From: Escherichia coli 042
Lineage (GTDB): Bacteria > Pseudomonadota > Gammaproteobacteria > Enterobacterales > Enterobacteriaceae
Reading direction: 5' to 3' (one strand)
Length of the DNA stretch: 64,000 nucleotides
NCBI RefSeq assembly: GCF_000027125.1
Contig: NC_017626.1
The notes below the pieces were generated by a model that was not told where the DNA came from, ran no database searches, and was given only the letters and a program-made list of their open reading frames with translations. The translations under genes and the position numbers were made by a program. Below are positions 5,290-5,603 of the stretch, piece by piece. Position 1 is the stretch's first letter. Every line of letters starts with the position of its first letter.

Positions 5290-5418
5290 CTATTTATCGG
5301 AAGGTTTATCTTGCTGCGGTTTGTTGTTGACCATATCGCACAACATAGAGAGCAGCATTAACCGTACTTTAAAGGGAGAATGACTAAACACGCGCATACA
5401 CCTCTTGAACTCATTCAT
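5290..5418 (-). CDS. mntS: Small protein MntS (42 aa), encoded within the RybA sRNA locus
   Basis: Reverse complement of 5290-5418 translates MNEFKRCMRVFSHSPFKVRLMLLSMLCDMVNNKPQQDKPSDK*, my own translation; matches remembered MntS. Not in the supplied ORF track (too short). Confidence 0.85.
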   Translation of the reverse strand: MNEFKRCMRVFSHSPFKVRLMLLSMLCDMVNNKPQQDKPSDK

Positions 5419-5476
5419 AAGACCTCCTGACTTGCTAATCCCGTCGATCCTTGAGGGATGATTGCATTACATACAG

Positions 5477-5505
5477 ATATAGCACAGGCTATATTATATA
5501 GCTAT
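5477..5505. promoter_or_regulatory. Candidate MntR operator(s) upstream of mntS
   Basis: Palindrome atatagc-acag-gctatat (5477-5494) and adjacent atatagctat (5496-5505), 60-90 bp upstream of the mntS ATG; resembles the MntR box. Confidence 0.5.
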
Positions 5506-5603
5506 TGCTAAAACGTTAATTTTTTGTACCTTTGCAACTCTGGTTTACAATGTGCGCACGAAATGAGAACGCTATGTATGCGTCACCATAATGAGGAAGC
5601 ACA

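Follow-up and report, generated by a model that had tools for sequence, protein, structure and literature searches.

The gap between opgE and mntR in Escherichia coli contains a 42-codon open reading frame (ORF) and nearby palindromes that resemble binding sites of the manganese-sensing regulator MntR, and the K-12 RefSeq annotation still places a 340-nt non-coding RNA, rybA, over the same ORF. The question is what this DNA encodes and how its expression is controlled. We analysed a window of 64 kb from an E. coli strain other than K-12, and we conclude with great confidence that the locus is E. coli mntS (rybA), with paired MntR dyads on its promoter that make it subject to repression by Mn-loaded MntR. 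The mntS gene, the function of its product and its paired operators have all been published, and nothing in the feature itself is new.

The mntS coding sequence and its neighbourhood

The mntS coding sequence occupies positions 5290-5418 on the minus strand, where the ORF listing gives an ATG start, 42 codons and a TAG stop, and its translation (42 aa) is MNEFKRCMRVFSHSPFKVRLMLLSMLCDMVNNKPQQDKPSDK. The original prediction had named this ORF as MntS from its translation, and the assignment holds on two counts. The DNA is identical, nucleotide for nucleotide, to K-12 mntS (b4705), which is annotated at the same position, and the protein passes the NCBIfam equivalog model NF033226 (small_MntS) with a score of 96 bits (cut-off 36; E = 6e-28), residues 1-39 aligning with profile positions 1-40 of 41. 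Pfam has no family for MntS. A Shine-Dalgarno sequence, AGGAGG, lies 4 nt before the ATG (5423-5428, minus strand; the plus strand reads CCTCCT), and the stretch that includes it, 5423-5430, has a mean conservation of 0.92 across 74 distinct intergenic regions.

The gene is flanked by opgE (3435-5018, minus strand) and by mntR (5604-6071, plus strand; RefSeq annotation), whose product passes the NCBIfam equivalog PRK11050 with 269 bits against a cut-off of 153 and carries the Pfam domains Fe_dep_repress and Fe_dep_repr_C. The order ompX, opgE(-), mntS(-), mntR(+), ybiR, ldtB is the one annotated by RefSeq in K-12 and in the closest complete genome; therefore, mntS and mntR are divergent, as had been predicted. 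Of 5426 complete E. coli genomes, 5421 contain a match of at least 95% identity to a 621-bp region around mntS, the best match to a complete genome being 99.5% identical, and among the matches listed all have opgE, mntS and mntR annotated. Alignment to K-12 MG1655 is gap-free, with 5 substitutions in 521 bases and none in the ORF, the leader or the palindromes. The coding sequence, 5′ leader and operator DNA are thus identical to those of the K-12 mntS/rybA locus and its MntR-repressed promoter (Waters, Sandoval & Storz 2011; Martin et al. 2015; Wright et al. 2023), the neighbours and their orientation are alike, and there is no functional difference between the two.

Selection on the MntS protein and the role of the RybA RNA

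The MntS protein is conserved and expressed (PMC4361602), and it is reported to bind and inhibit the MntP exporter (bioRxiv 10.1101/2023.06.02.543501). Its origin is reported to lie in the SitA signal peptide (Wright et al., bioRxiv 10.1101/2023.06.02.543501). SitA signal peptides are reported homologues of MntS that share a PF motif with it and are likewise associated with MntR (bioRxiv 10.1101/2023.06.02.543501); unlike them, MntS is free-standing and has neither the AXA cleavage motif nor a mature SitA domain.

Using MntR as the query and one genome per species, we collected 80 loci from the Enterobacteriaceae. In 77 of these, a MntS homologue is encoded upstream of mntR and divergently from it, and opgE lies downstream in all 77. 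The three loci that lack MntS comprise two truncated contigs and Citrobacter sp. R56. In this Citrobacter locus (L015, ~880-1095), unrelated AT-rich DNA stands where mntS and the left half of the operator closer to it would be, while the GCTATAT half of that operator, the second operator and mntR are retained. Here mntS has been lost in nature, and the breakpoint falls inside an operator.

Across the mntS coding sequence, variability at codon positions 1, 2 and 3 is 0.112, 0.047 and 0.233, and the peptide motif RC..VF.HSPF.VRL is invariant among 73 distinct sequences. From this codon-position pattern together with the invariant motif, the aligned sequences indicate that the mntS ORF is under protein-level selection.

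The same transcript could instead act mainly as a regulatory small RNA, RybA, within which the 42-codon ORF would be incidental. K-12 RefSeq retains the ncRNA feature, parts of the RybA 3′ region are conserved, RybA is stated to affect aromatic amino-acid genes (Gerstle et al. 2012, as cited in PMC4361602), and PMC4361602 leaves an sRNA role possible in other contexts. Against these points, selection acts on the MntS protein, as its codon-position pattern and invariant motif indicate, and a curated equivalog model recognises that protein. Shuffled sequences fold as well as the 340-nt RNA (z = -0.15), and the overproduction phenotype needs the MntS protein and is independent of Hfq (PMC4361602). 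An Rfam 15 scan of 4500-6500 (E <= 1) returned no match and thus none to a RybA family, which leaves the Rfam comparison proposed in the original prediction uninformative, and the K-12 annotation is the sole support for the ncRNA label here. Much of the conserved RybA 3′ sequence also resembles an opgE promoter. We consider it very unlikely that the ORF is incidental to an RNA; an additional RNA function of RybA beside MntS may exist.

The resemblance at the 3′ end arises from a conserved promoter-like element, TTGACC-17-TATCTT (5141-5169, minus strand), located ~125-150 bp upstream of the opgE ATG. Its TTGACC hexamer is nearly invariant across genera, the first four bases completely so, and the annotated 3′ end of K-12 rybA (5146) falls inside its -10 hexamer. 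Because this element covers the rybA 3′ end, part of what has been regarded as conservation of the RybA 3′ region is, judging by the sequence, probably that of the opgE promoter.

Two MntR operators upstream of mntS

The first operator, at 5477-5494, reads ATATAGC-ACAG-GCTATAT and contains an exact ATAGC-N4-GCTAT core at 5479-5492. The second, at 5496-5513, reads ATATAGC-TATT-GCTAAAA; a one-mismatch search places its core, ATAGCTATTGCTAA, at 5498-5511 in the same register, the right half-site being degenerate in E. coli (GCTAA). The two therefore carry the inverted repeat exactly and with one mismatch, respectively, and form a pair of 18-bp dyads separated by 1 bp, with their centres 19 bp apart. 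The MntR sites of mntS were reportedly defined by Waters, Sandoval and Storz in 2011, and Yamamoto et al. are said to have found, also in 2011, a ChIP-chip peak in the mntS-mntR intergenic region. A full-text literature search for the operator strings produced no matching paper.

The original prediction had described an ATATAGC-N4-GCTATAT palindrome and an adjacent atagctat palindrome 60-90 bp upstream of the ORF. Both are found, 59-76 and 80-87 bp upstream of the mntS ATG (5418), respectively, and the first is the exact-core operator at 5477-5494, the site ranked highest by the weight matrix described below. The 8-mer ATAGCTAT is present at 5498-5505 (plus strand); it is not itself the second operator, and consists of the left half-site plus three bases of the spacer. 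Reading ATAGCTAT as an operator with zero spacer was rejected, as all 77 loci keep the N4-spaced register, with a perfect match in 14 species.

Operators at other MntR-regulated promoters (mntH, mntP and dps) served as the standard of comparison. One exact copy of ATAGC-N4-GCTAT is present upstream of K-12 mntH, and K-12 mntP is preceded by one exact core and a one-mismatch copy 40 bp away. A symmetrised 18-bp weight matrix was derived from the single mntH site and the mntP pair alone, and all positions of the 64-kb window were ranked by it. The mntS sites came first (5477-5494, 21.2 bits) and second (5496-5513, 16.2 bits), and the dps site came fourth. The palindromes had been called MntR-operator-like, a description borne out by these ranks and by the same core upstream of mntH, mntP and dps, where it likewise has A/T-rich flanks.

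The only other exact core in the window, ATAGCACCGGCTAT at 1382-1395, precedes the dps start codon (ATG at 1332-1330, minus strand) by 50-63 bp. It is reportedly the dps site of Yamamoto et al. 2011. The literature lists dps as another MntR-repressed gene (PMC4207228).

The palindromes might also have arisen by chance in an AT-rich promoter, or be sites of another metalloregulator such as Fur. The mntS promoter region is indeed AT-rich, with TATA-like runs, and mntH, another MntR target, is Fur-regulated as well (PMC4676285). The counts say otherwise: the exact core ATAGCNNNNGCTAT occurs twice in 64 kb (5479-5492 and 1382-1395) versus 0.01 copies expected from shuffles, and hence the palindromes are more than chance. 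Their half-sites are invariant across genera whereas the N4 spacer and flanks vary (the spacer is nearly invariant in the alignment), and a matrix derived from other MntR targets selects exactly the two mntS sites. Fur binding at the palindromes was rejected since the best Fur-box match in 5400-5620 reaches 10/19. Chance or Fur is, in our judgement, an extremely improbable explanation, and we regard the two dyads as MntR operators.

Conservation of the operator pair

Among the 77 loci that carry mntS, the operator 1 core is exact in every one and operator 2 is always present, invariably offset by 19 bp from operator 1. Operator 2 forms a perfect ATAGC-N4-GCTAT in 14 of the 77 loci. Depending on the locus, operator 1 is between 38 and 68 bp from the ATG. 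In an alignment of the 74 distinct intergenic regions, the operator 1 half-sites are invariant, and boxes 1 and 2 have mean conservation values of 0.99 and 0.95, respectively, compared to about 0.75-0.79 for the flanks. Half-sites and spacing are consequently more constrained than their surroundings. The register of operator 2 at 5496-5513 is a minor correction to the original prediction, and the invariance of the 19-bp spacing is a small refinement to the published picture.

Two further observations concern DNA adjoining the pair. Next to operator 1, the block CATTACATACAGA (5466-5478) shows little or no variation in the 74 intergenic regions; it corresponds to +8 to +20 of the mntS leader and reaches well past an 18-22-bp MntR site. 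In Leclercia adecarboxylata (L040, ~862-1110), an insertion of ~250 bp immediately follows operator 2, and within it a GC-rich repeat, GCG[CT]TTGCGCTGGCC...GGCGAGGCC, occurs twice. This insertion parts the operators from the conserved TTGTAC/TACAAT block (CGTTAATTTTTTGT...TACAAT), which stays beside mntR.

The operators cover the mntS promoter

We transferred the RybA/mntS transcript from K-12 by gap-free alignment (ncRNA rybA, b4416, 340 nt), which places it at 5146-5485 on the minus strand; the mntS transcription start at 5485 is thus derived from the annotated K-12 rybA 5′ end. Relative to this annotated start, the centre of operator 1 (5485.5) falls on +1 and that of operator 2 (5504.5) at about -19.5. 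The original prediction had placed the operators upstream of the ORF; with the annotated start, the dyads cover the promoter itself rather than lying 5′ of it, a placement from which promoter control is possible. Previous work likewise describes two MntR sites that overlap the mntS promoter, 18 bp each and 1 bp apart (PMC11275975), and the coordinates 5477-5494 and 5496-5513 give exactly this 1-bp spacing.

Between the operators, 7 nt before the annotated start, is a candidate -10 element, TATAAT (5493-5498, minus strand). Only position 3 of this hexamer varies, as expected for a -10 element. We found no good hexamer for the -35 of mntS, and a consensus promoter scan returned no minus-strand promoter at mntS. 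With dyads at +1 and about -19.5 and the candidate -10 between them, the arrangement fits occlusion of the promoter by Mn-loaded MntR.

Transcripts of mntS reportedly share one 5′ end and measure between 205 and about 400 nt (PMC4361602). A GC-rich hairpin, GCGGCG-TCGCGGTA-CGCCGC (5272-5291, minus strand), overlaps the mntS stop codon; across genera the stem is preserved and the loop varies in length and sequence. The intrinsic-terminator scan of 5000-5650 found none, and because no T-run follows the hairpin, it is not a canonical intrinsic terminator. It is likely, from its position and conserved stem, to be the 3′-end structure of the short mntS transcripts. Counting 205 nt from 5485 leads to 5281, a position within the hairpin; either the start or the size estimate is therefore approximate, perhaps by a few bases.

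Proposed regulation of mntS

That MntR represses mntS in response to Mn had been predicted and is established (PMC4361602, PMC9806134, PMC11275975, PMC11742986). The arrangement of the locus suggests how repression may proceed. A sigma-70 promoter on the minus strand, with its TATAAT -10 at 5498-5493 and a start at ~5485, would produce an mRNA with a 67-nt leader, a strong Shine-Dalgarno sequence and the 42-codon mntS ORF. The two 18-bp dyads would lie on either side of the -10 element, covering +1. At high cytoplasmic Mn2+, both would be occupied by Mn-loaded MntR dimers, probably cooperatively, and RNA polymerase would be blocked; here, both occlusion and cooperativity are inferred. When Mn2+ is scarce, the dyads would be free and MntS would be made. 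According to the literature, MntS would then bind and inhibit the MntP exporter, and intracellular Mn would rise.

Comparison with other MntR-regulated genes shows where the mntS pair differs. At mntH and at dps there is one exact core each, compared to the pair at mntS. Like mntS, mntP has two sites, but their centres are 40 bp apart rather than 19 bp, and the mntP pair is located far upstream of its promoter, where it serves activation (PMC11275975), whereas the mntS pair sits on the core promoter. A closer match in geometry is found in Bacillus subtilis, where the tandem MntR sites of mneP and mneS are also 18-bp dyads 1 bp apart, length and spacing being the features compared. The B. subtilis mneP sites are bound cooperatively, and PMC11275975 itself points out that the mntS sites share their spacing. 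By analogy, the shared spacing suggests cooperative dimer-dimer binding at mntS. The outcomes differ: the four B. subtilis sites serve to activate an exporter gene, while at mntS two sites repress.

Possible control of mntR by the same operators

The operator pair could also control the divergent mntR gene, in addition to mntS, and so provide autoregulation. Measured from the mntR ATG, the dyads are 93-127 bp upstream. From 5514, a conserved A/T-rich stretch leads, on the plus strand, into TTGTAC (5524-5529) and, after 16 bp, TACAAT (5546-5551). By its sequence, this TTGTAC-16-TACAAT element (5524-5551) is a candidate for the promoter of mntR, whose ATG lies about 45 bp further on; the dyads would then be positioned at about -53 and -72 of this promoter. 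A second promoter-like match on the plus strand, ATTACA-18-TATATT (5466-5495), overlaps operator 1, and its ATTACA sits in the invariant block.

Each of these points can be countered. Both plus-strand promoters are consensus guesses, and TTGTAC matches the consensus at 3/6 positions only. The constraint on 5466-5478 might just as well come from the mntS leader, and mntR autoregulation is not reported in the papers on MntR that we consulted. We therefore treat autoregulation of mntR through these operators as conceivable and rather doubtful. A more specific form of the idea, in which the paired operator and the block 5466-5478 would act as a bidirectional switch that also sets mntR transcription via a conserved divergent promoter, with TTGTAC-16-TACAAT or ATTACA-18-TATATT as the candidates, strikes us as unlikely. 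Repression of mntS through the paired dyads remains our reading of the locus.

Discussion

Recognition of a 42-codon gene and its operators from the raw sequence was correct, and the locus provides a useful calibration point for such readings. The level of the mntS transcript is already a standard readout of cytoplasmic Mn availability. The 19-bp spacing, invariant in 77 species of Enterobacteriaceae, supports the published proposal of cooperative binding by MntR dimers at mntS. If the bidirectional switch were true, the level of the Mn sensor and the level of MntS would be coupled.
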